A stretch of 64,000 bases of DNA from Pseudomonadota bacterium (GTDB lineage Bacteria > Pseudomonadota > Alphaproteobacteria > Rs-D84), in assembly GCA_023402015.1 (NCBI GenBank), contig JAEXCU010000011.1:5275-69274 (forward strand). Reading direction: 5' to 3'. This document shows, piece after piece, positions 22,685 through 58,513 of the stretch. The first letter of the stretch is position 1, and every line of letters starts with the position of its first letter. The notes below the pieces were generated by a model. It was not told where the DNA came from and made no database searches. It saw only the letters and a program-made list of their open reading frames with translations. Position numbers and translations under genes: made by a program.

Positions 22685-22724
22685 TTAATCTTTACACTTT
22701 GTCATTTTTATATTACAGTTTAAT

Positions 22725-22905
22725 TGTTTCGGGGCGTTCCCGGGACGAGGACTTGAAACCTCTCTTATAACGTGGTGCATCGCGATAGTATGCAAACAAT
22801 CTCCGGCCAAATGGGTTGGAGGGTGGTGATATACATGAATAATCCACGCTATTTTATAAGATAGTTTCAAGCCTCCAACCACCTGATTTTTTCGGTGGTT
22901 TTTTC
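22725..22905 (+). ncRNA. Conserved structured leader RNA, copy A (three-way junction 22814-22880 plus terminator 22878-22905) upstream of P4
   Basis: P1 GGUUGGAGG/CCUCCAACC, P2 GUGG/CCAC, P3 GCUAU/AUAGU, then CCACC-N-GGUGG-U6. The ATG of P4 is 27 nt after the T-run. Confidence 0.6.
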
Positions 22906-22932: not shown

Positions 22933-23502
22933 ATGAAAAAATTTATGCGTATCTTTTTGCTGGGGCCCGGATTAATCATATCTTATCATGCAATGGCAAT
23001 GTCAGATAACACGATTCAAATCTGTGATACGGGACAATTCCCCGATGATATCGCATGTAAATTATACCTGGCGGGTTATACAATTTCATCCACAATGGCA
23101 TGCAGTATGTGCACAGATATAATGGGTTGTGTTTATGATAAAATTTACAATATGGGCACAACAACATCATCCGCATTACAGGAATGTTATGATAACGAAG
23201 GCTATGACAATGGTGATGTTGCAGCAATATTTAACATCATTGCGGGCGGTGATACCACAAATTTGGATGTTAATTTATCAGGGGGCAATTTTATCGCCGC
23301 ATGCCAAAATTATTCTTTGTGCCAATGTTGGATTGGTACATATGGCGCAAACGGCGAAAATATTGTGTGCAATGATTGCCCACAAAACGGATGGTCCGCC
23401 ACCGGTGCCACATCCATAACCCAATGTTATATGATACCCGGTAATTCCAGTGATACAACAGGCCAATTTACATATACCGCAAATTGTTTTTATACAAATT
23501 AA
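22933..23502 (+). CDS. Small secreted Cys-rich protein (P4)
   Basis: 189 aa with RBS AAGGAGG and signal MKKFMRIFLLGPGLIISYHAMA. N-domain has CxxCx5C...Cx5C. C-terminus CNDCPQNGWSATGATSITQCYMIPGNSSDTTGQFTYTANCFYTN. Confidence 0.82.
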   Translation: MKKFMRIFLLGPGLIISYHAMAMSDNTIQICDTGQFPDDIACKLYLAGYTISSTMACSMCTDIMGCVYDKIYNMGTTTSSALQECYDNEGYDNGDVAAIFNIIAGGDTTNLDVNLSGGNFIAACQNYSLCQCWIGTYGANGENIVCNDCPQNGWSATGATSITQCYMIPGNSSDTTGQFTYTANCFYTN

Positions 23503-26765: not shown

Positions 26766-26810
26766 CATCTGTAAAGACGTCAGTATTGTGGTTTGTATAG
26801 GAGATTGTGT

Positions 26811-27035
26811 ATGCCAAACGTTATGCAGCAATTGTTCATTATGAACATAGAATCATTGCTGAAAGAATATGCGGCCTATCGCACTTTTAATAAATCAGAT
26901 TGCGTTATAAACATGCGCATTCCGCGTCCAATTTTGGACCGGATTAAGCAATTGGCTGAACAACAACACGTTCCATATCAGTCATTAATATCGTCGGTAT
27001 TATTTTCCCTGGCGAACATAGAAGACGGAAAATAA
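26811..27035 (+). CDS. BrnA-like (CopG/RHH-type) antitoxin-like protein without an adjacent toxin
   Basis: 74 aa with RBS AGGAG. INMRIPRPILDRIKQLAEQQHVPYQSLISSVL matches the BrnA-type signature (...PYQ.LI...L). Confidence 0.55.
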   Translation: MPNVMQQLFIMNIESLLKEYAAYRTFNKSDCVINMRIPRPILDRIKQLAEQQHVPYQSLISSVLFSLANIEDGK

Positions 27036-27445: not shown

Positions 27446-27460
27446 GCGAATAAAACAAAA

Positions 27461-27491
27461 AACGGGGCGCCATATTGGCGTCCCGTTTTTT
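27461..27491. terminator. Bidirectional terminator hairpin
   Basis: AACGGGGCGCC-ATAT-TGGCGTCCCGTTTTTT, with A-rich 5' and T-rich 3' flanks. Confidence 0.65.
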
Positions 27492-27508
27492 GTTTTTATT
27501 ATTGACTA

Positions 27509-29902: not shown

Positions 29903-29931
29903 TTGCAAAGTTAAAACGCATATTATATAAT
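29903..29931 (+). promoter_or_regulatory. Near-consensus sigma70-type promoter driving leader RNA copy B
   Basis: TTGCAA-17 nt-TATAAT. Confidence 0.6.
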
Positions 29932-29936
29932 TCCCA

Positions 29937-30086
29937 TGCATCGGCCGATTACCGATGCGGGGTGTGATAACCCTTTAAGACACTTTTTACTCCACATTGG
30001 TTGGAGGGTCGCGAATATCCAATAAGCGACACTATTGTCTTAGTAGTTATCAACCTCCAACCGCCCTTAATCACGGCGGTGTTTTT
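29937..30086 (+). ncRNA. Conserved structured leader RNA, copy B (three-way junction 29999-30062 plus terminator 30060-30086)
   Basis: P1 GGUUGGAGG/CCUCCAACC, P2 GUCGC/GCGAC, P3 ACUA/UAGU, terminator ACCGCC-N-GGCGGU-U5. Upstream hairpin GCATCGG/CCGATGC and GGGGUGUGAUAACCC. Confidence 0.6.
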
Positions 30087-30089
30087 ATT

Positions 30090-30172
30090 AACTGGATTGC
30101 CACGCTGCACTTCGTTTGCTGGCAATGACAATTCTCTGTCATTGCGAGGGAGTGAAACGACCGCGGCAATCC
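30090..30172. repeat. Palindromic repeat element (GTCATTGC...GCAATCC family) inserted between leader B and the HTH gene
   Basis: CTGGATTGCC...TGGCAATGACA-ATTCTC-TGTCATTGCGAGGGAGTGAAACGACCGCGGCAATCC. 30137-30166 is an exact inverted copy of 27413-27442. Confidence 0.7.
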
Positions 30173-30197
30173 ATACAAAAAACAGAGAGGAAAAAAC

Positions 30198-30422
30198 ATG
30201 ACAACATTAATTGATTCAAAATACGTCGGCGCAGCGTTGTGCTGTGCACGACGCAACGCAGCGTTCAGTCGGATAGAGGCCGCCAGAATGCTGAACACAT
30301 CGTACCAGGAATTATTACGATACGAACATGGCCAGGCGGTTATACCGCGGGCGATGCTGCACAGTTTGCTGACATTGGGATTTATGATGATGCGCGCGCG
30401 AAACTTTGTCCGCAACCAATAA
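30198..30422 (+). CDS. Small XRE-type HTH protein
   Basis: 74 aa with RBS GAGAGGA. ARRNAAFSRIEAARMLNTSYQELLRYEHGQAVIP is an XRE-like HTH. Confidence 0.6.
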   Translation: MTTLIDSKYVGAALCCARRNAAFSRIEAARMLNTSYQELLRYEHGQAVIPRAMLHSLLTLGFMMMRARNFVRNQ

Positions 30423-30473: not shown

Positions 30474-31088
30474 CTATTGCCAATCAGTTAAATCATCATC
30501 TTCGCCATAACTGGCATAGCAAAAATCACTGAGGATACCGCTGCCCGTTTCATCCGAAAAATTGCCGGGCACCAAAAAACACGACGTAATAAAAATTGAA
30601 TTTTCATATGACAACCCATTCATGGGACATCGCAAACATTCAGAATTTATTCCCCATTTCAGGGCCGAAATACCACGCGGTTGTATGTACGAACCATTGG
30701 TACAATAACAATAACCGATATTAACACAGGATTCCAAAACCCTGCCCGCCAGCGTTTTATGTGTTTCATTCATACGGACATTTTCCAACATGTCGCAGGT
30801 TTTATCATACCAATACGTATTGGTAATATCCCTGGCATTTTCGGCCAATGTTCCTGAAAATTCCGCAACGGATGGATATTTATCCAGACATATTGCAGCG
30901 GCATCTGAATAATCCGCCACGTCATAAGAATTGCAATTCTGGGCCGCCACATTGGGATACACCGCATTCGCAACACATGATACAAAATTAACGCAACTGT
31001 CGCATGATTGTCCCAGGTTTATTGTGCCGCCCCCAGATTCACACATAATTAATACGACAAAAAATAATGACCAAAAGAATTTTTTCAT
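30474..31088 (-). CDS. Secreted Cys-rich protein (P6)
   Basis: 204 aa with signal-like MKKFFWSLFFVVLIM. N-domain has CDSCVNFVSC...C...C. C-terminus CLRCPMNGLSYENSIFITSCFLVPGNFSDETGSGILSDFCYASYGEDDD. Confidence 0.8.
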   Translation of the reverse strand: MKKFFWSLFFVVLIMCESGGGTINLGQSCDSCVNFVSCVANAVYPNVAAQNCNSYDVADYSDAAAICLDKYPSVAEFSGTLAENARDITNTYWYDKTCDMLENVRMNETHKTLAGRVLESCVNIGYCYCTNGSYIQPRGISALKWGINSECLRCPMNGLSYENSIFITSCFLVPGNFSDETGSGILSDFCYASYGEDDDLTDWQ

Positions 31089-31116: not shown

Positions 31117-31320
31117 CAAAAAACCACCGAAAAATTCAGGTGGTCAGGAGGTTGGAAACAATCATGTGAATTGTGCCGCGTATTTTGTATTCCGCGACCC
31201 TCCCGACCCAATGGGCAGGAGTTTTTTTATTGTTGCCACCGGCGATATAAAATACCGCAGGATGTTCTTTGCAACACACATGTCGGGTTTCCACACCCCA
31301 TTTCGGCAACACACCGAAAC
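31117..31320 (-). ncRNA. Conserved structured leader RNA, copy D (junction 31142-31208, terminator 31117-31145) upstream of P6
   Basis: On the minus strand: P1 GGUCGGGAGG/CCUCCUGACC (an extra compensated pair relative to A-C), P2 GUCGCG/CGCGGC, P3 ACAAU/AUUGU, terminator CCACC-N-GGUGG-U6. Upstream GGGGUGUGGAAACCC. Confidence 0.6.
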
Positions 31321-31360
31321 AAATTTATTATATCTGATATGAATTTTTTTAAAAGTAAAA

Positions 31361-31475: not shown

Positions 31476-31640
31476 TGCAGATATGCGAAAACCCGATGGC
31501 GTAGTGTACAAATGCTACATCAGCCGATCAGCATAAATTTATTAGAACGATACAGATACAGGCGAAAAATTTGCGTAGTGTATTAGACATACACAAGCAA
31601 ATTTTTCGCCTGTAGATGTGTTGTTATGATAAATTTTGTT

Positions 31641-41597: not shown

Positions 41598-41786
41598 ATG
41601 AATCAGGGATACCTGGTTTGGGGTGTCGAAACCCGGAAATTGGCGTTCTGGCAACAGAATGAAAAATGTCTCCAACGGATTAATCCGGTTGGAGGGTTGT
41701 GAATAATGCGTTCGCGCAAAATAAGCACACTATACCAATTTATAGTTTCGAACCTCCAACCGCCCTTAAAAACGGCGGTGTTTTTC
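41598..41786 (+). ncRNA. Conserved structured leader RNA, copy C (junction 41687-41761 plus terminator 41759-41786) upstream of P8
   Basis: GGGGUGUCGAAACCC hairpin. CUCCAACGG-N-CCGGUUGGAG alternative helix. P1 GGUUGGAGG/CCUCCAACC, P2 UGUG...CACA (with nested UGCG/CGCA), P3 CUAUA/UAUAG, terminator ACCGCC-N-GGCGGU-U5. ATG is 27 nt downstream. Confidence 0.6.
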
Positions 41787-41812: not shown

Positions 41813-42286
41813 ATGAAACTTTTTTACATCTTTATCATACCGTTGTTGTACACAACATCTGCAAATGCGCTGTGTGCATCGGACACGGAAATCACCACAG
41901 AAATACCAAACGGAAAAATTGTACGCAGAGATTGCGCATACGTTGCGCCCAATTGTTCCGGCACATGTCCATGTTGCAGAACATCGCCAGTTTATACATG
42001 TACATGCAACAGTGGATATTACGCAACCGGTGGCGGAACCACCAATTGTACATGTAATGCATGTCCGACAAACAGCACCTGCACCAGTGCCACCAGTTTT
42101 ACATGCAATGTCGGATATTATAAAAATGGCGTTGTTTGTTCGCGATGTCCATCGTCGTACGGTGTGGACGGGACAACCACGCGCGGTGCAACATCCATAA
42201 CCAAATGTTATTTACCGTCCGGCACAATCGGCACAGATACATCAGGTGATTTTGCATATTCTGAAAATTGCTTTTATTCAGAATAA
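41813..42286 (+). CDS. Small secreted Cys-rich protein (P8)
   Basis: 157 aa from MKLFYIFIIPLLYTTSANA with RBS GGAG. CNSGYYATGGGTTNCTCNACPTNSTC, CNVGYYKNGVVCSRCPSSYG...ATSITKCYLPSGTIGTDTSGDFAYSENCFYSE. Confidence 0.82.
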   Translation: MKLFYIFIIPLLYTTSANALCASDTEITTEIPNGKIVRRDCAYVAPNCSGTCPCCRTSPVYTCTCNSGYYATGGGTTNCTCNACPTNSTCTSATSFTCNVGYYKNGVVCSRCPSSYGVDGTTTRGATSITKCYLPSGTIGTDTSGDFAYSENCFYSE

Positions 42287-55840: not shown

Positions 55841-55867
55841 AAAAATCCGCCGATTGGCGGATTTTTA
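55841..55867. terminator. Terminator after the giant Cys-rich gene (copy 2 of an identical 25-mer)
   Basis: AAAAATCCGCCGATTGGCGGATTTTTA. Confidence 0.65.
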
Positions 55868-58513
55868 TTGAATCGCATGATATGTTGTACCACCAAAATT
55901 TACATTTATCGCATTTTGGGAATTTCCGGCGGCCAAACTGCCATAGCAAACCTGGGATGCATAACCAACACCCAATGCGTGGTCGGTTTGTTTTGCTGAA
56001 TACAGCGGAACTGTAATTCCATTACCCATTTTTAATTGTGTTATTCCGGCCCTACACAATTGGGCGCAGACATTTTGCGATGTCAGATTGTATCCAGAAT
56101 CACATACCCACGGGCAACTGTTGGATGCCGCGTTGGACGTATATGATGAATTGGCAATTTTGTTTGTGCATGCCACACATGCGGATGCGCCACCCGCACT
56201 GTATTTTCCAACCGCACATTCTGTGCATGTTGGATTTGCGGTTTTATTACCCGCTGCGCCATATTTGGCATTGCAATTTACATTATATGTACACGCCCGA
56301 TATGCCGAACCAGAATAATATTCATGGGCATTGACCACCGTGGTGGTACCGCCTGAAATTGATTTGGCCGTGCAACTGATATAACAATCACCAATTTCAT
56401 CGCGTCCATTGTCAGAACCAGATGCCGTCGGTGGGCACGTTTTGCGTGAATTATCCCCCGGGCAATAATATCCACTTTCGCATGCGGTGCATGTGCCATT
56501 GGCATTTTTATAAAAGCCAGGGTTGCATGTTATTGTTATATCGCAGGTGGATTCCGCCGCACTGCACGAACCACCGTAATATTCTGTGCCAGATGTGGAC
56601 GACGAACCGTGGGTGCATGTTGCATTTGCGGGACATGTCTGTTGTGTGCATGCGCGTGTGCATGATTTCCAACATGCCCCAATGCCCCCGGTGGTGCCAT
56701 TGGCACTGTTGGGATACGTCGCCGGGCATCCGGCGCATGCCCCAGACGACAAATAATATCCGTCATTACAACTGGCGGCGACGCACGATGTGCTGCACAC
56801 GCCATAACTGCTGCACCCGGTGCACGATGCACCCGCGGACGAACACGCACTGTTGGTATAATTTCCGTTGCATGTTTTTGTGCCCGCGGGACAAGACACG
56901 CTGTATGCATTTGCAACACTGTTTGACGGCGTGCATGACGTGGTGGATGACCGGTTGGCAACACTGGTGCAAACAGTATTGCATGAACATCCCGATGCGG
57001 TCGCAGTGTATCCGGTTTCGCAACTGTATGTCCATGCACCATATGACCAATCACCACAACTGGCCGATCCGGTGCATGCGGACGCAGACGTACTGCCCGC
57101 GGGACTGGTGGTGCGATAACATGTGCGCGATTTGCTGCGACTGCGCGTGCCACCCGTGGTGGATTCACTATCCGTGCCGGTTTCGGTAAATGAAACGGAT
57201 GAACATGCGGCGCATGAACTGCCCGATTTATAGTAATTCGCATTACATTGCCATGGACAATTATCTTCAACCGCATACATGGATGACGGTGTACTATAAC
57301 TGGTGTATGTGGCGTTGGCCGGTGCATTGGTACATGCCGTACAAATGTTGTACCAATCGTTAAAATTCAACGGGTCAGACGCATAATATCCCGTACGACA
57401 CCAATCATAATGGGTATAATTGTTTCCACTGGGGCCGTTATAACATGTGGTCTGATTTAAATATTGTATTCTGGTACTGTCGCTAAGGTACCAGTTGCAA
57501 ATACAATCTGACGAACTGACTGCATGTTCATAATCAGACCAACTGCCACTGGACAAACTGACAATGCTTTCCGGTGTTGGCGAACCGGATTTTACCGTGC
57601 TGGCGCATGTTGCGCGGTTTGTGCCACCGGTACAATAATTACCACTGCCACAGGCGGCGCAAGATGTATTGCCATTTGCGCTGGATCCGTAATATCCAGC
57701 ATTACATGACCATGGGCATGAATTGGCCGTCGCAGAACCAACGTATTCAGAATTTGCAGGCTTGTTGCTGCAACTGTTCAGGCCATAACCATTGCTTAAA
57801 TTCCCCTCGGCAACACTGCTGAATCCGGGGCAATAACTGCCCGACGGGCATGAACCACATGCCGAACCATTCCAATATGTTCCGGCCGGACACGTTATAT
57901 ATCGCGTGCCACCGGTGCATGTGCCCCACGAGGAACAACCACTGCACGATGCGCCGGCCGACGAACAATCACCATTTGTGTAATTACCCGCACATATCTG
58001 ATATGCGCCGGAATAAGAACACGTTCCCCCTGATACAGAACATGACCGCGTACACGATTGGGTGGACGCGCGATTTGCGACACTGGTGCATGGCGTAGTG
58101 CAAACGCATGAATTATTGCTGTTGGTGTATCCACTGTTGCATGATGAAACATAACATGTTCCGGTGGATGTACGCCCCCATGATGAACACCCCGTACATG
58201 ACCCGGTACAGTTATCGCCACCGGTGTAATAACCATTACAGGTGTTGGTATATGACCGCGTCCCGGCGCCGTTTGTTATACCGCAAGATTCGCTGCCTGA
58301 TGATGTACTGGACGAATTGGGCGTGCTGGTACACGTATTTGTGCAACATACCGGGGCGTTCGTTCCACCCGCACATGTACAACCCGACGGACACGACGAA
58401 CATGAATTACCGGCCGTCGTTCCGTTCAAATAGTACCCCGCATTACACGATGTATATTTCTTATACGTAGGGCAAGAATACCCAGCCGCACCAGCAACGG
58501 AAACACTTAACAA
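55865..58513 (-). CDS. Giant Cys-repeat surface protein (furin-like / ephrin-receptor-like / VSP-like CxxC repeats)
   Basis: 882 aa, roughly 13% Cys, very Ser/Thr/Gly/Asn-rich. About 10 units of C[ND].G[YF]Y...C..C..G.YC. Recurring blocks ANS.Y....A.NSCPW.C[ND].GY and NYTN..CSSAGASC.GCSS.G. The frame stays open to 58555 (RFFFSLTFLLLSVSVAGAAG, signal-like) but has no canonical start there. Confidence 0.8.
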   Translation of the reverse strand: MLSVSVAGAAGYSCPTYKKYTSCNAGYYLNGTTAGNSCSSCPSGCTCAGGTNAPVCCTNTCTSTPNSSSTSSGSESCGITNGAGTRSYTNTCNGYYTGGDNCTGSCTGCSSWGRTSTGTCYVSSCNSGYTNSNNSCVCTTPCTSVANRASTQSCTRSCSVSGGTCSYSGAYQICAGNYTNGDCSSAGASCSGCSSWGTCTGGTRYITCPAGTYWNGSACGSCPSGSYCPGFSSVAEGNLSNGYGLNSCSNKPANSEYVGSATANSCPWSCNAGYYGSSANGNTSCAACGSGNYCTGGTNRATCASTVKSGSPTPESIVSLSSGSWSDYEHAVSSSDCICNWYLSDSTRIQYLNQTTCYNGPSGNNYTHYDWCRTGYYASDPLNFNDWYNICTACTNAPANATYTSYSTPSSMYAVEDNCPWQCNANYYKSGSSCAACSSVSFTETGTDSESTTGGTRSRSKSRTCYRTTSPAGSTSASACTGSASCGDWSYGAWTYSCETGYTATASGCSCNTVCTSVANRSSTTSCTPSNSVANAYSVSCPAGTKTCNGNYTNSACSSAGASCTGCSSYGVCSTSCVAASCNDGYYLSSGACAGCPATYPNSANGTTGGIGACWKSCTRACTQQTCPANATCTHGSSSTSGTEYYGGSCSAAESTCDITITCNPGFYKNANGTCTACESGYYCPGDNSRKTCPPTASGSDNGRDEIGDCYISCTAKSISGGTTTVVNAHEYYSGSAYRACTYNVNCNAKYGAAGNKTANPTCTECAVGKYSAGGASACVACTNKIANSSYTSNAASNSCPWVCDSGYNLTSQNVCAQLCRAGITQLKMGNGITVPLYSAKQTDHALGVGYASQVCYGSLAAGNSQNAINVNFGGTTYHAIQ

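Follow-up and report, generated by a model that had tools for sequence, protein, structure and literature searches.

Five genes in the window, by which we mean the whole 64,000-nucleotide stretch of DNA analysed here, are each preceded by the same structured leader RNA of ~190 nt, so that every unit reads as promoter-like region, leader and gene. The leader has two mutually exclusive folds, both backed by covariation, and the overlap of one of them with an intrinsic terminator is conserved. Our proposal, held with moderate confidence, is that each copy heads an autonomous transcription unit and acts as a two-state transcription attenuator, which is based on an RNA module of the C4/sRNA-Xcc1 type and serves genes for secreted Cys-rich proteins and small HTH proteins.

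Leader copies in the window

A preliminary description of this DNA had reported four copies (A to D) of a three-way junction with helices P1, P2 and P3, a U-rich joiner, a terminator and an upstream CUCC segment. We confirmed all of these parts at the same coordinates, and all four copies are real. A fifth, more divergent copy (E, 6031-6117 on the minus strand) had been missed, as had the 5' half of the ~190-nt leader, of which only the 3' half had been seen. An upstream hairpin (hp2) had been noted in B, C and D, where it is present, but copy A has a variant of it (GAGGACUUGAAACCUC) too. The parts of the five leaders are as follows.

Copy A, 22714-22719 (+): -10-like TACAGT
Copy A, 22727-22904 (+): whole leader, beginning with the 5' hairpin hp1 and ending with the T-run of terminator T2
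Copy A, 22747-22770 (+): upstream hairpin hp2 GAGGACUUGAAACCUC with b1
Copy A, 22752-22759 (+): a1, CUUGAAAC, complementary to a' (GUUUCAAG, 22864-22871)
Copy A, 22763-22770 (+): b1, UCUUAUAA, complementary to b' in the P3 loop (UUAUAAGA, 22854-22861)
Copy A, 22814-22880 (+): three-way junction core (R1 model 79.3 bits; fold z −3.55)
Copy A, 22814-22822 with 22872-22880 (+): P1
Copy A, 22823-22847 (+): P2
Copy A, 22848-22865 (+): P3
Copy A, 22877-22904 (+): intrinsic terminator T2, with AACC common to its 5' arm and the P1 3' strand
Copy B, 29903-29931 (+): promoter-like TTGCAA-N17-TATAAT
Copy B, 29938-30086 (+): whole leader
Copy B, 29959-29982 (+): hp2 GGGGUGUGAUAACCC with b1
Copy B, 29965-29971 (+): a1, UGAUAAC, complementary to a' (GUUAUCA, 30046-30052)
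Copy B, 29976-29982 (+): b1, UAAGACA, complementary to b' (UGUCUUA, 30036-30042)
Copy B, 29990-29994 (+): P0 arm CUCCA, pairing with the P1 5' strand
Copy B, 29999-30062 (+): three-way junction core (R1 74.0 bits; fold z −5.2)
Copy B, 30060-30086 (+): terminator T2
Copy C, 41601-41785 (+): whole leader
Copy C, 41620-41643 (+): hp2 GGGGUGUCGAAACCC with b1; it contains a1, UCGAAAC, complementary to a' (GUUUCGA, 41745-41751)
Copy C, 41637-41643 (+): b1, AAAUUGG, complementary to b' (CCAAUUU, 41735-41741)
Copy C, 41670-41676 (+): P0 arm CUCCAAC
Copy C, 41687-41761 (+): three-way junction core, the P2 loop of which holds an additional P2a hairpin (R1 69.9 bits)
Copy C, 41759-41785 (+): terminator T2
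Copy D, 31327-31332 (−): -10-like TATAAT
Copy D, 31118-31319 (−): whole leader
Copy D, 31277-31299 (−): hp2 GGGGUGUGGAAACCC with b1
Copy D, 31287-31293 (−): a1, UGGAAAC, complementary to a' (GUUUCCA, 31153-31159)
Copy D, 31277-31282 (−): b1, CAUGUG, complementary to b' (CACAUG, 31163-31168)
Copy D, 31213-31221 (−): P0 arm CUCCUGCCC
Copy D, 31142-31208 (−): three-way junction core with a 10-bp P1 (R1 63.2 bits)
Copy D, 31118-31145 (−): terminator T2
Copy E, 6002-6249 (−): whole leader
Copy E, 6205-6222 (−): hp2 GGGGACGUAAGAAAUCCC
Copy E, 6196-6205 (−): b1, CAUAGAAUAU
Copy E, 6121-6125 (−): P0 arm CCCCG
Copy E, 6031-6117 (−): three-way junction core with a long P2 (fold z −2.65); its P1 is GGCCGGGGGG/CCUCCCGACC, with one C.A mismatch
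Copy E, 6051-6060 (−): b', AUAUUCUAUG
Copy E, 6002-6034 (−): terminator T2

The three-way junction and its homologues

From A to D we abstracted the DNA pattern GGAGGGT-N30-60-GTTWYNARCCTCC, which matches exactly these four copies in the window (expected: 0.00, from 100 shuffles). Their isolated cores each fold as a P1/P2/P3 junction (z = −3.6 to −5.2). The pattern retrieved at least 118 DNA stretches, mostly from Enterousia-like gut Alphaproteobacteria, together with bona fide sRNA-Xcc1 members (59–67 bits). A covariance-model search of relatives, which the preliminary description had proposed as a check, was carried out with the model R1, built from Enterousia-type copies; it returned 120 matches, and window copy E was recognised by it at 24.4 bits (E=1.8×10−4). 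Counting both these matches and 19 pattern-match loci outside the model search, there are at least 135 elements in ~800 kb of related genomes. The density in the window is five copies per 64 kb.

The three-way junction shows strong covariation, as had been claimed from the four copies. In the 120 homologues aligned to the covariance model (117 distinct rows), 95.1% of cells were paired, compared with 30–51% when partners were slid. Both sides had changed in 14 of the 20 junction pairs and none of 500 shuffles reached the observed values, with the reservation that the seed pattern fixes some invariant positions of the alignment, a bias that is partly offset by 16 matches found by the covariance model only. 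RCC or RCU after P1 was kept in copies found without the pattern. The P2 loop (GAAUAUAUUGAAUAA) is strongly conserved; by inspection we found no partner for it, and it has no role in the attenuator model.

The alternative fold

The U-rich joiner of the preliminary description is present, but it is really the partner (a') of a segment, a1, that forms the loop of the upstream GGGGUGUNNNAACCC hairpin (hp2). The P3 loop, too, has an upstream partner: it constitutes b', which is complementary to the segment just 3' of hp2 (b1, directly adjacent in 78 of 87). Variable spacers and register shifts prevent reliable alignment by columns, and we therefore judged the long-range fold by own-versus-other complementarity tests. 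Complementarity of at least 7 nt between a1 and a' was found in 89% of own pairs and in 6% of cross-copy pairs (p=2×10−45), with at least 25 distinct sequence pairs. For b1 and b', complementarity of at least 6 nt occurred in 93.5% compared with 21.7% (p=2×10−43). Both pairings thus covary copy by copy (p about 10−43 to 10−45) and both are present in all five window copies. The joiner has no conserved sequence and covaries with a1, and b1 is hypervariable (88 distinct sequences among 109 copies).

The CUCC segment had been thought to pair alternatively with P1, and this is borne out across the family. Watson-Crick pairing of at least 6 nt between this anti-P1 arm (P0) and P1 was seen in 94 of 118 copies but in only 4.6% of shuffles, and the arm follows the P1 type (TT with AA 43 times, CA with TG 34 times). 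A covarying anti-P1 arm is confined to the terminator-bearing lineage.

The long-range helices contain 123 G.U pairs and 2 A.C mismatches, so the long-range pairing acts at the RNA level, on the sense strand. This bears on the idea, raised in the preliminary description as a potential refutation, that the element is a known repeat or MITE, or more broadly a dispersed repeat or integron-type DNA site that has no RNA function. The element is multicopy, and canonical sRNA-Xcc1 is found in integron cassettes, plasmids, prophages and other mobile elements, as such an explanation would have it. However, compensatory changes keep the helices while the sequences differ, G.U is tolerated where A.C is not, and the element keeps a constant orientation and spacing relative to the next gene. 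No terminal inverted repeats were found at the element, the window is housekeeping chromosome (dnaN, gyrB, dnaJ, uvrC, tolB, efp, ppa, cdaA), and 2.9 million viral contigs yielded just 4 matches, all of them canonical prophage copies. We regard a mere DNA repeat as extremely improbable and effectively refuted by the sense-strand covariation. Since the viral contigs hold canonical copies only, they give no direct sign that the window copies came from phages.

Terminator and served genes

In the intrinsic terminator T2, the stem measures 8 bp in the median (−10.8 kcal/mol). The 5' arm of T2 had been described as overlapping P1, and it does so by 3–4 nt in 89 of 93 copies. A simple terminator scan was uninformative, the loops of the leader terminators exceeding its loop limit. 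Just 5' of hp1, a -10/-35-like profile was apparent; in a simple promoter scan, promoter-like matches in the window were no commoner than in shuffles.

The genes served by the five leaders are:

22933-23502 (+): gene of A, 189-aa signal-peptide Cys-rich protein
30198-30422 (+): gene of B, 74-aa XRE-type HTH protein, 108 nt past T2
41813-42286 (+): gene of C, 157-aa signal-peptide Cys-rich protein
30474-31088 (−): gene of D, 204-aa signal-peptide Cys-rich protein
5600-5980 (−): gene of E, 126-aa signal-peptide Cys-rich protein with a C-terminal module as in the A, C and D proteins

Cys-rich genes had been reported downstream of the element, which is correct for A, C and D, and also for E, but not for B with its HTH gene. 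The ATG, said to lie about 27 nt past the T-run in A, C and D, was measured at 27–29 nt. In the family census, the downstream gene was always co-oriented and started a median of 25 nt past the T-run (IQR 21–27). This distance leaves no room for a separate promoter, and the served gene therefore depends on read-through. Among 118 copies, 62 served signal-peptide Cys-rich proteins, 12 other signal-peptide proteins and 26 small proteins, ~20 of which were HTH proteins of a single family (70–92 aa), a recurrent second class. A common metabolic or transport theme among the served genes was not found in this census. In these uncultured gut bacteria, it is probably this leader that chiefly regulates the secreted Cys-rich proteins.

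Alternatively, the junction and T2 could constitute a stand-alone sRNA like C4 or Xcc1, which has its targets elsewhere or is sponged by its own a1b1, and read-through into the gene would then be a by-product that the fold does not control. In Xanthomonas, and only there, sRNA-Xcc1 is known as a stable RNA of 88 nt (PMC2996969), processing to stable RNAs is likewise known for C4 and CI (PMC11143913, PMC4825925, PMC3632133, PMC12197685), and hypervariable a/b segments are what one expects of antisense addresses. The fixed spacing and orientation of the served gene speak against this explanation, as do the T2 5' arm that is built into P1 and the confinement of the covarying anti-P1 arm to copies of the terminator-bearing lineage. 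Moreover, the P3 loop showed no excess complementarity near the ribosome-binding sites of the served genes (own 4.90 compared with other 4.66 nt), where a target of the a2/b2 type would be expected. We therefore consider a stand-alone sRNA doubtful.

The served genes and leaders also bear on a ribosome-mediated (leader-peptide) attenuator and on a protein-bound antiterminator, for which the candidate proteins would be the co-occurring small HTH proteins or else Hfq, acting at the AAYAA-like P2 loop. The 1:2 / 2:3 / 3:4 logic resembles that of classical attenuators, the conserved P2 loop carries AAUAA/AAUAU motifs, and the ~20 HTH genes would supply a candidate protein. However, the five window leaders share no conserved small ORF (a chance 12-codon GTG ORF occurs in A only), which refutes the leader-peptide version, and XRE-type HTH proteins bind DNA. 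Together, these mechanisms appear very unlikely.

Proposed attenuation model

In the two-state attenuator that we favour, the OFF fold would form when the GGGG strand of hp2, a1 and the next 6–10 nt (b1) form long-range pairs with the 3' portion of the junction, namely with the P3 loop (b'), with the end of P3 and the joiner (a') and with CCUC of the P1 3' strand. The CUCCNNN arm (P0) would at the same time sequester the P1 5' strand. AACC-RCC would thereby be freed, T2 would be completed and transcription would stop ~25 nt before the start codon. In the ON fold, hp2 would be closed on itself and the three-way junction formed; P1 would then take 3–4 nt of the T2 5' arm and RNA polymerase would read into the gene. 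Termination at T2 and read-through into the gene are both predicted.

Folding of 88 full leaders gave probabilities of 0.92 for the a pairing, 0.93 for b, 0.94 for P0, 0.88 for T2 and 0.00 for P1. With a1b1 masked the probability of P1 rose to 0.33, and with a1b1 and P0 masked to 0.85, although this masking model weakened T2 just partly (from 0.88 to 0.54). Locally, P0+T2 and P1 are almost equal in energy (−0.5±3.7 kcal/mol). At equilibrium the leader is overwhelmingly in the OFF fold, and the ON state hence needs a kinetic route or a factor.

As for the fold that wins in vivo and its decider, we infer that the arbiter is most likely RNA-RNA pairing at the hypervariable a/b address, by analogy with C4 of phages P1/P7 and CI of P4, which are processed from a leader and act by locus-specific a/b pairing. 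For example, free junction RNA from earlier transcripts might occupy a1b1 on the nascent leader. A small molecule would be a less probable arbiter.

The element had been called riboswitch- or attenuator-like. The attenuator logic stands, with P1 set against the CUCC arm and a terminator ~25 nt before the start. The riboswitch part does not, given the gene content and a joiner that is a pairing segment, and on the same grounds c-di-AMP, which had been named as a candidate ligand, is not supported. A metabolite or ion riboswitch would use the junction as aptamer, the ligand stabilising P1 and so preventing the terminator; the conserved P2 loop in the junction, the overlap of P1 and terminator and the near-isoenergetic local states would all be consistent with this. 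The joiner and P3 loop, however, vary freely as pairing addresses, unlike a conserved pocket, the homologues belong to the C4 type of antisense RNA and have their targets at ribosome-binding sites, the window element matched no Rfam riboswitch family, and the served genes have no metabolic theme. A metabolite riboswitch is thus unlikely. With its two exclusive, covariation-backed folds, the proposed attenuator offers a clean natural test case for metabolite-free RNA switches.

A bolder extension of the attenuator model, to which we give only a small chance, is that every gene has its own orthogonal a/b address and that the junction RNA of terminated leaders feeds back in trans on its own locus only. 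The result might be a heritable, locus-specific ON/OFF switch, that is, RNA-only phase variation of the secreted or surface protein repertoire by a domesticated immunity module from phages, in an alphaproteobacterium of the gut whose genome measures ~1 Mb.

Relation to known systems

The preliminary description could not assign the element to a known class, and at gathering thresholds a tRNA was indeed the sole Rfam match in the window. In E-value mode, however, full-length sRNA-Xcc1 (RF02221) was matched by A (42.5 bits), C (37.4), D (34.3) and E (30.4), B not being listed; these scores of 30–42 bits do not reach the gathering score of 53, and bona fide sRNA-Xcc1 loci score 59–73.5 bits. The match covers model positions 1–87, with a full-length P1/P2/P3 junction, a UUUnnAR joiner and RCC after P1. 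There is a continuum with accepted members, as one pattern retrieves both Enterousia-type copies and the loci L050, L053 and L080, which pass the gathering score and to which R1 gives 33–43 bits. The window element is a divergent relative of the phage-type sRNA-Xcc1/C4 antisense RNAs, below threshold for sRNA-Xcc1 itself, and a large group of elements is thereby placed in a known RNA lineage.

With sRNA-Xcc1 the window copies share a 9–10-bp P1, a P2 with AAUA.../GAAUAA loop residues, P3, a 6–7-nt joiner and RCC after P1, as well as the upstream hp2, with a1 in its loop paired to the joiner and b1 on its 3' flank paired to the P3 loop, and the position 5' of a co-oriented gene. They differ in that P2a is usually deleted. 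Only canonical sRNA-Xcc1 has a2/b2 targets, at the SD/ATG of genes of the KilA-N/Bro-N/Rha/ORF6N/symE type, its served genes being antirepressor-like (KilA-N/Bro-N/Rha). It carries an intrinsic terminator 3' of b1 and, following P1, a CACC...GGUG hairpin that has no U-run. In the window copies, by contrast, a U-run turns the post-P1 hairpin into a terminator, the anti-P1 arm covaries, and the setting is a housekeeping chromosome with secreted Cys-rich and HTH genes. The window variant may thus exemplify the rewiring of a module, in which loss of ribosome-binding-site targets and gain of an anti-P1 arm and a U-run would have turned a translational repressor into a transcription attenuator of ordinary chromosomal genes. 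Rfam treats sRNA-Xcc1 as a stand-alone sRNA and does not include it in the C4 clan, yet its targets are arranged in full as in C4-type immunity RNAs (a1b1/a2b2), an arrangement for which we found no description in the literature searched.

In ON-type three-way-junction riboswitches, such as the adenine riboswitch pbuE, P1 shares nucleotides with the terminator 5' arm and its closure leads to read-through. In the window copies, too, P1 of a three-way junction and the 5' arm of the intrinsic terminator overlap. In contrast to pbuE, the junction strand and one loop serve as addresses that pair with a segment farther upstream in the same leader, and the gene set is not metabolic.

C4 with a1b1/IsrK (RF01695, RF03163, RF01394; phages P1/P7; CI RNA and seqA of P4) has the same topology position for position: two adjacent 5' hairpins with a1 in the loop of the second and b1 just 3', then a junction RNA carrying a' as its joiner and b' as the loop of its 3' hairpin, then RCC. 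We checked the positions of a1, b1, a' and b' on bona fide C4 loci and found them to be the same. RNAs of the C4 type are encoded in the leader of the gene they control, and their a/b sequences are specificity addresses (heteroimmunity; PMC12197685, PMC4825925, PMC3632133). The C4 5' end is matured by RNase P (Hartmann et al. 1995, as cited in PMC11143913); of such maturation, the window copies show just the conserved RCC that follows P1. The covariance models for C4, c4-a1b1 and isrK gave no match at E≤10 in 22000-42500 or 5500-6500 of the window, and all three were detected at the control locus L122. P1 comprises 9–10 bp in the window copies compared with 17 bp in C4. Nor do the window copies lie in a phage immunity region: the phage or plasmid immunity setting, with antirepressor or replication genes downstream, was not encountered in the window. 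C4 blocks a ribosome-binding site via a2/b2, targets of a kind found at canonical Xcc1 loci as well as at C4 loci, and P4 CI uses seqC. The window copies are devoid of such a downstream target, so the analogy with C4 leaves the action of an RNA in trans unspecified here; unlike C4, they appear to act through the overlap of P1 with the terminator.

Results

A pattern abstracted from the four leader copies of the preliminary description (A to D) matched just those four sites in the window, with none expected by chance, and the copies are present as described. Their isolated cores each folded into the proposed three-way junction of helices P1, P2 and P3, far below shuffled controls, and a covariance model from relatives recovered A to D at 63-79 bits. 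It also recovered a fifth copy, E, with the same terminator as the others; 21 nt beyond, a fifth member of the Cys-rich gene family begins.

Features of the leader copies in the window
6028-6119 (-), core of copy E (covariance model 24.4 bits, E 1.8×10−4)
6002-6249 (-), leader of copy E, preceding Cys-rich gene 5600-5980(-)
30087-30197 (+), insert of copy B between terminator and gene, with two inverted repeats (TTGCCA...TGGCAA and TGACA...TGTCA)
22823-22847, P2 region of copy A
30008-30030, P2 region of copy B
41696-41730, P2 region of copy C
31175-31198, P2 region of copy D

We scanned one genome per prokaryotic species with the DNA pattern GGAGGGT-N30-60-GTTWYNARCCTCC-N2-3-CCRCC, and at least 118 stretches matched. 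Of the matches listed, nearly all belonged to uncultured Alphaproteobacteria of animal guts, under the labels Candidatus Enterousia, Alphaproteobacteria or Rickettsiales; one source was a closed chromosome of 0.96 Mb, and contigs carried multiple leader copies. Typical Enterousia-type copies at three homologous loci (L036, L070, L083) lay on contigs recorded as Prevotella sp. or Bacteroides fragilis; mis-binning or mislabelling of these assemblies is the probable reason. Searching 99 pattern loci and the window with the model gave 120 matches, 16 of which lay outside the pattern and were thus free of its forced invariants. In the 120-match alignment, 95.1% of cells were paired, and sliding the partners lowered this to 30-51%. 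Of the 20 junction pairs, 14 varied on both sides, and none of 500 shuffles attained the observed values, which bears out the covariation first seen in four copies. The GGAG-G of P1 covaried in pattern-free copies too (e.g. GGAGU/ACUCC, GGAGA/UCUCC).

At gathering thresholds, Rfam gave no match for the leader copies. In E-value mode, copies A, C, D and E matched the whole sRNA-Xcc1 model (RF02221; gathering score 53) at 42.5, 37.4, 34.3 and 30.4 bits, respectively, so that the element can no longer be said to belong to no known class. The threshold was passed by the pattern's few gamma- and alphaproteobacterial matches (Azomonas, Thiodictyon, Pseudovibrio) and by relatives from plasmids and prophages that BLAST retrieved (62-73.5 bits). 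Accepted relatives under the same pattern, together with the sub-threshold matches in the window, argue that the window element is a divergent sRNA-Xcc1 subfamily missed by the curated threshold.

The preliminary description had captured the 3' part of the leader correctly; the full leader is larger. In aligned upstream regions, a -35/-10-like profile is followed in fixed order by a covarying hairpin of 7 bp with a pentaloop (hp1), an abutting second hairpin (hp2; GGGGUGUNGNAACCC or GAGG...CCUC), a variable segment of 6-10 nt, usually a hairpin starting with CGUC, an A-rich tract, CUCCNNN and P1. The P3 loop (b') is perfectly complementary to the segment immediately 3' of hp2 (b1): best runs reached at least 6 nt within the own copy for 93.5% of 93 distinct loops, compared with 21.7% against other copies' leaders (Mann-Whitney p 1.9×10−43). 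Segment b1 lay directly 3' of hp2 in 78 of 87 cases and was hypervariable (88 distinct sequences in 109 copies); P3 arm types numbered only 18. The hp2 loop (a1) is likewise complementary to the last two P3 nucleotides plus the joiner (a'), with runs of at least 7 nt in 89% of own-copy and 6% of other-copy comparisons (p 2.1×10−45) and at least 25 different covarying pairs. The previously noted U-rich joiner and GGGGUGU...AACCC hairpin are therefore partners. Both rules hold in all five window copies.

The CUCC segment suggested to face P1 (the P0 arm) proved real and covaries with P1 type: CUCCAA accompanies GGUUGGAG in 43 copies and CUCCUG accompanies GGUCAGGAG in 34. Of the 118 copies listed, 94 have at least 6 nt of Watson-Crick complementarity between it and the P1 5' strand, compared with 4.6% of shuffles; canonical gammaproteobacterial loci have no P0 arm. 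Copy E is nearer to canonical sRNA-Xcc1 in its P1 (GGCCGGGGGG) and long P2, and carries an additional terminator-like hairpin, GGCGCAUUUGCGCC plus a U-rich run, between b1 and P0. The most conserved junction part, pattern-free copies included, is the P2 loop GAAUAUAUUGAAUAA, whose canonical form is GAAUACAA...GAAUAA either side of a P2a hairpin. On inspection, no pairing partner was found for this loop. Its AAYAA-like motifs resemble the sites recognised by the distal face of Hfq.

We folded 88 complete leaders from hp1 through the T-run. One structure (the proposed OFF state) dominated, composed of a long-range helix, the P0 hairpin, P2 and the intrinsic terminator T2. The 5' side of this helix consists of the hp2 GGGG strand, a1 and b1; b', a' and CCUC from the 3' strand of P1 make up the other side. 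Mean pair probabilities were 0.92 for a, 0.93 for b, 0.94 for P0 and 0.88 for T2, as against 0.00 for P1 and 0.01 for P3. The core alone adopted the junction fold (the proposed ON state). Barring a1b1 from pairing raised the computed probability of P1 to 0.33; barring the P0 arm as well raised it to 0.85 and lowered that of T2 to 0.54. Locally, P0 plus T2 and P1 are near-isoenergetic. T2 has a median stem of 8 bp (-10.8 kcal/mol), and its 5' arm has 3-4 nt in common with P1 in 89 of 93 copies. The two folds are mutually exclusive. Since covariation is found in both, both must matter. G.U pairs number 123 in the long-range helices and A.C mismatches only 2, which indicates selection on this strand as RNA.

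The downstream gene was co-oriented in every case, its start codon a median of 25 nt (IQR 21-27) after the T-run with a Shine-Dalgarno sequence within. Among the 118 distinct copies listed, 62 lie before genes for signal-peptide proteins of at least 4% Cys, 12 before genes for other signal-peptide proteins and 26 before genes for small proteins; about 20 of the last form one XRE-type HTH family of 70-92 aa. Copy B is of the HTH class; its T2 lies 108 nt from the start codon, compared with ~20 nt in other such copies. The four Cys-rich proteins of the window have a common C-terminal module (C..CP..G.S..G..IT.CY..G..D.TG.F.Y..C[FY]Y), which gives a weak Pfam signal of the ephrin-receptor-like/TNFR type. 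An 882-aa protein (55865-58513(-)) with a TNFR/ELAPOR-like Cys-rich repeat (Pfam PF23091, E 3×10−6) may be related to them in module type; the model search found no leader copy before its gene.

Genes around the copies are housekeeping. The only mobile-element-like genes noticed were an ORF matching the N-terminal and central domains only of phage-type integrases (8094-9143(-)) and an 80-aa CopG-antitoxin-like ORF (26793-27035(+)). A near-perfect palindrome of ~75 nt (31548-31623), downstream of efp and before the copy D promoter, gives a microRNA-precursor score on either strand, as a long hairpin would. A perfect 20-bp hairpin between A- and T-runs (27452-27496) resembles a bidirectional terminator.

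Discussion

We consider it rather probable that the leader is a two-state transcription attenuator, in which T2 would terminate transcription, the junction helix P1 would act as antiterminator and the long-range helix with P0 as anti-antiterminator. The equilibrium fold favours OFF, and read-through would need a trigger or a kinetic route. C4 and CI suggest, by analogy, that pairing of an RNA with the locus-specific a/b address is the likeliest input; the pairing RNA may be the junction RNA of earlier transcripts, with feedback of either sign.

sRNA-Xcc1 is a stable 88-nt RNA in Xanthomonas (PMC2996969). It lies before symE in integron cassettes and, in APSE phage, before an ORF6N gene; Xylella has tandem arrays of it. 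Canonical loci (L050, L053, L080, L105, L119-L124, L125-L128) have the same hp2-a1-b1 module as the window, but an intrinsic terminator then follows b1, and second target copies (a2, b2) lie between junction and start codon, b2 adjoining or overlapping the SD/ATG of KilA-N, Bro-N or Rha-type genes. The terminator would free a short IsrK-like RNA bearing a1b1. Together with the targets, which are located where ribosomes bind on transcripts of antirepressor-like genes, this terminator suggests that sRNA-Xcc1 is a C4-type repressor encoded in cis and not a general virulence sRNA that acts in trans. Rfam lists no clan for sRNA-Xcc1, placing it outside the C4 clan, and the literature mentions of sRNA-Xcc1 that were consulted yielded no description of an a1b1/a2b2 layout. 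This layout across the family appears to be new. So does the occurrence in gut Alphaproteobacteria of a derivative that is chromosomal, multicopy and coupled to a terminator.

In P1/P7, C4 pairs around the ribosome-binding site and so keeps the antirepressor from being made, with heteroimmunity set by the C4 a/b sequences (PMC12197685); a reference listed in PMC11143913 attributes C4 maturation to RNase P. The CI RNA of P4, a product of leader processing, causes premature termination by pairing with seqA and seqC; the structural homologue of seqA is IsrK and that of CI is C4 (PMC4825925; PMC3632133). In bona fide C4 loci (L105, L122), the second IsrK hairpin loop holds a1 with b1 right after, a' is the joiner, b' is the 3' hairpin loop, and the ribosome-binding site downstream is where a2 and b2 are found. 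L122, a phage-plasmid (E. coli plasmid NZ_CP114132.1), carries a complete IsrK/c4-a1b1/C4 module (773-971); a distinct sRNA-Xcc1 module (1499-1582), with a1b1 and a2b2 of its own, lies 500 nt downstream. The two paralogous RNA systems thus coexist in one element.

The window element failed tests with the C4, c4-a1b1 and isrK covariance models, and no a2/b2 targets were found near the genes served. Nonetheless, the a/b segments occupy the same positions in canonical sRNA-Xcc1 and C4, so the window element is C4-type in build and presumably in working. It differs from C4 in lying outside any immunity region. Its additions are the P0 arm and a U-run, the latter on a hairpin found after P1 in every relative.
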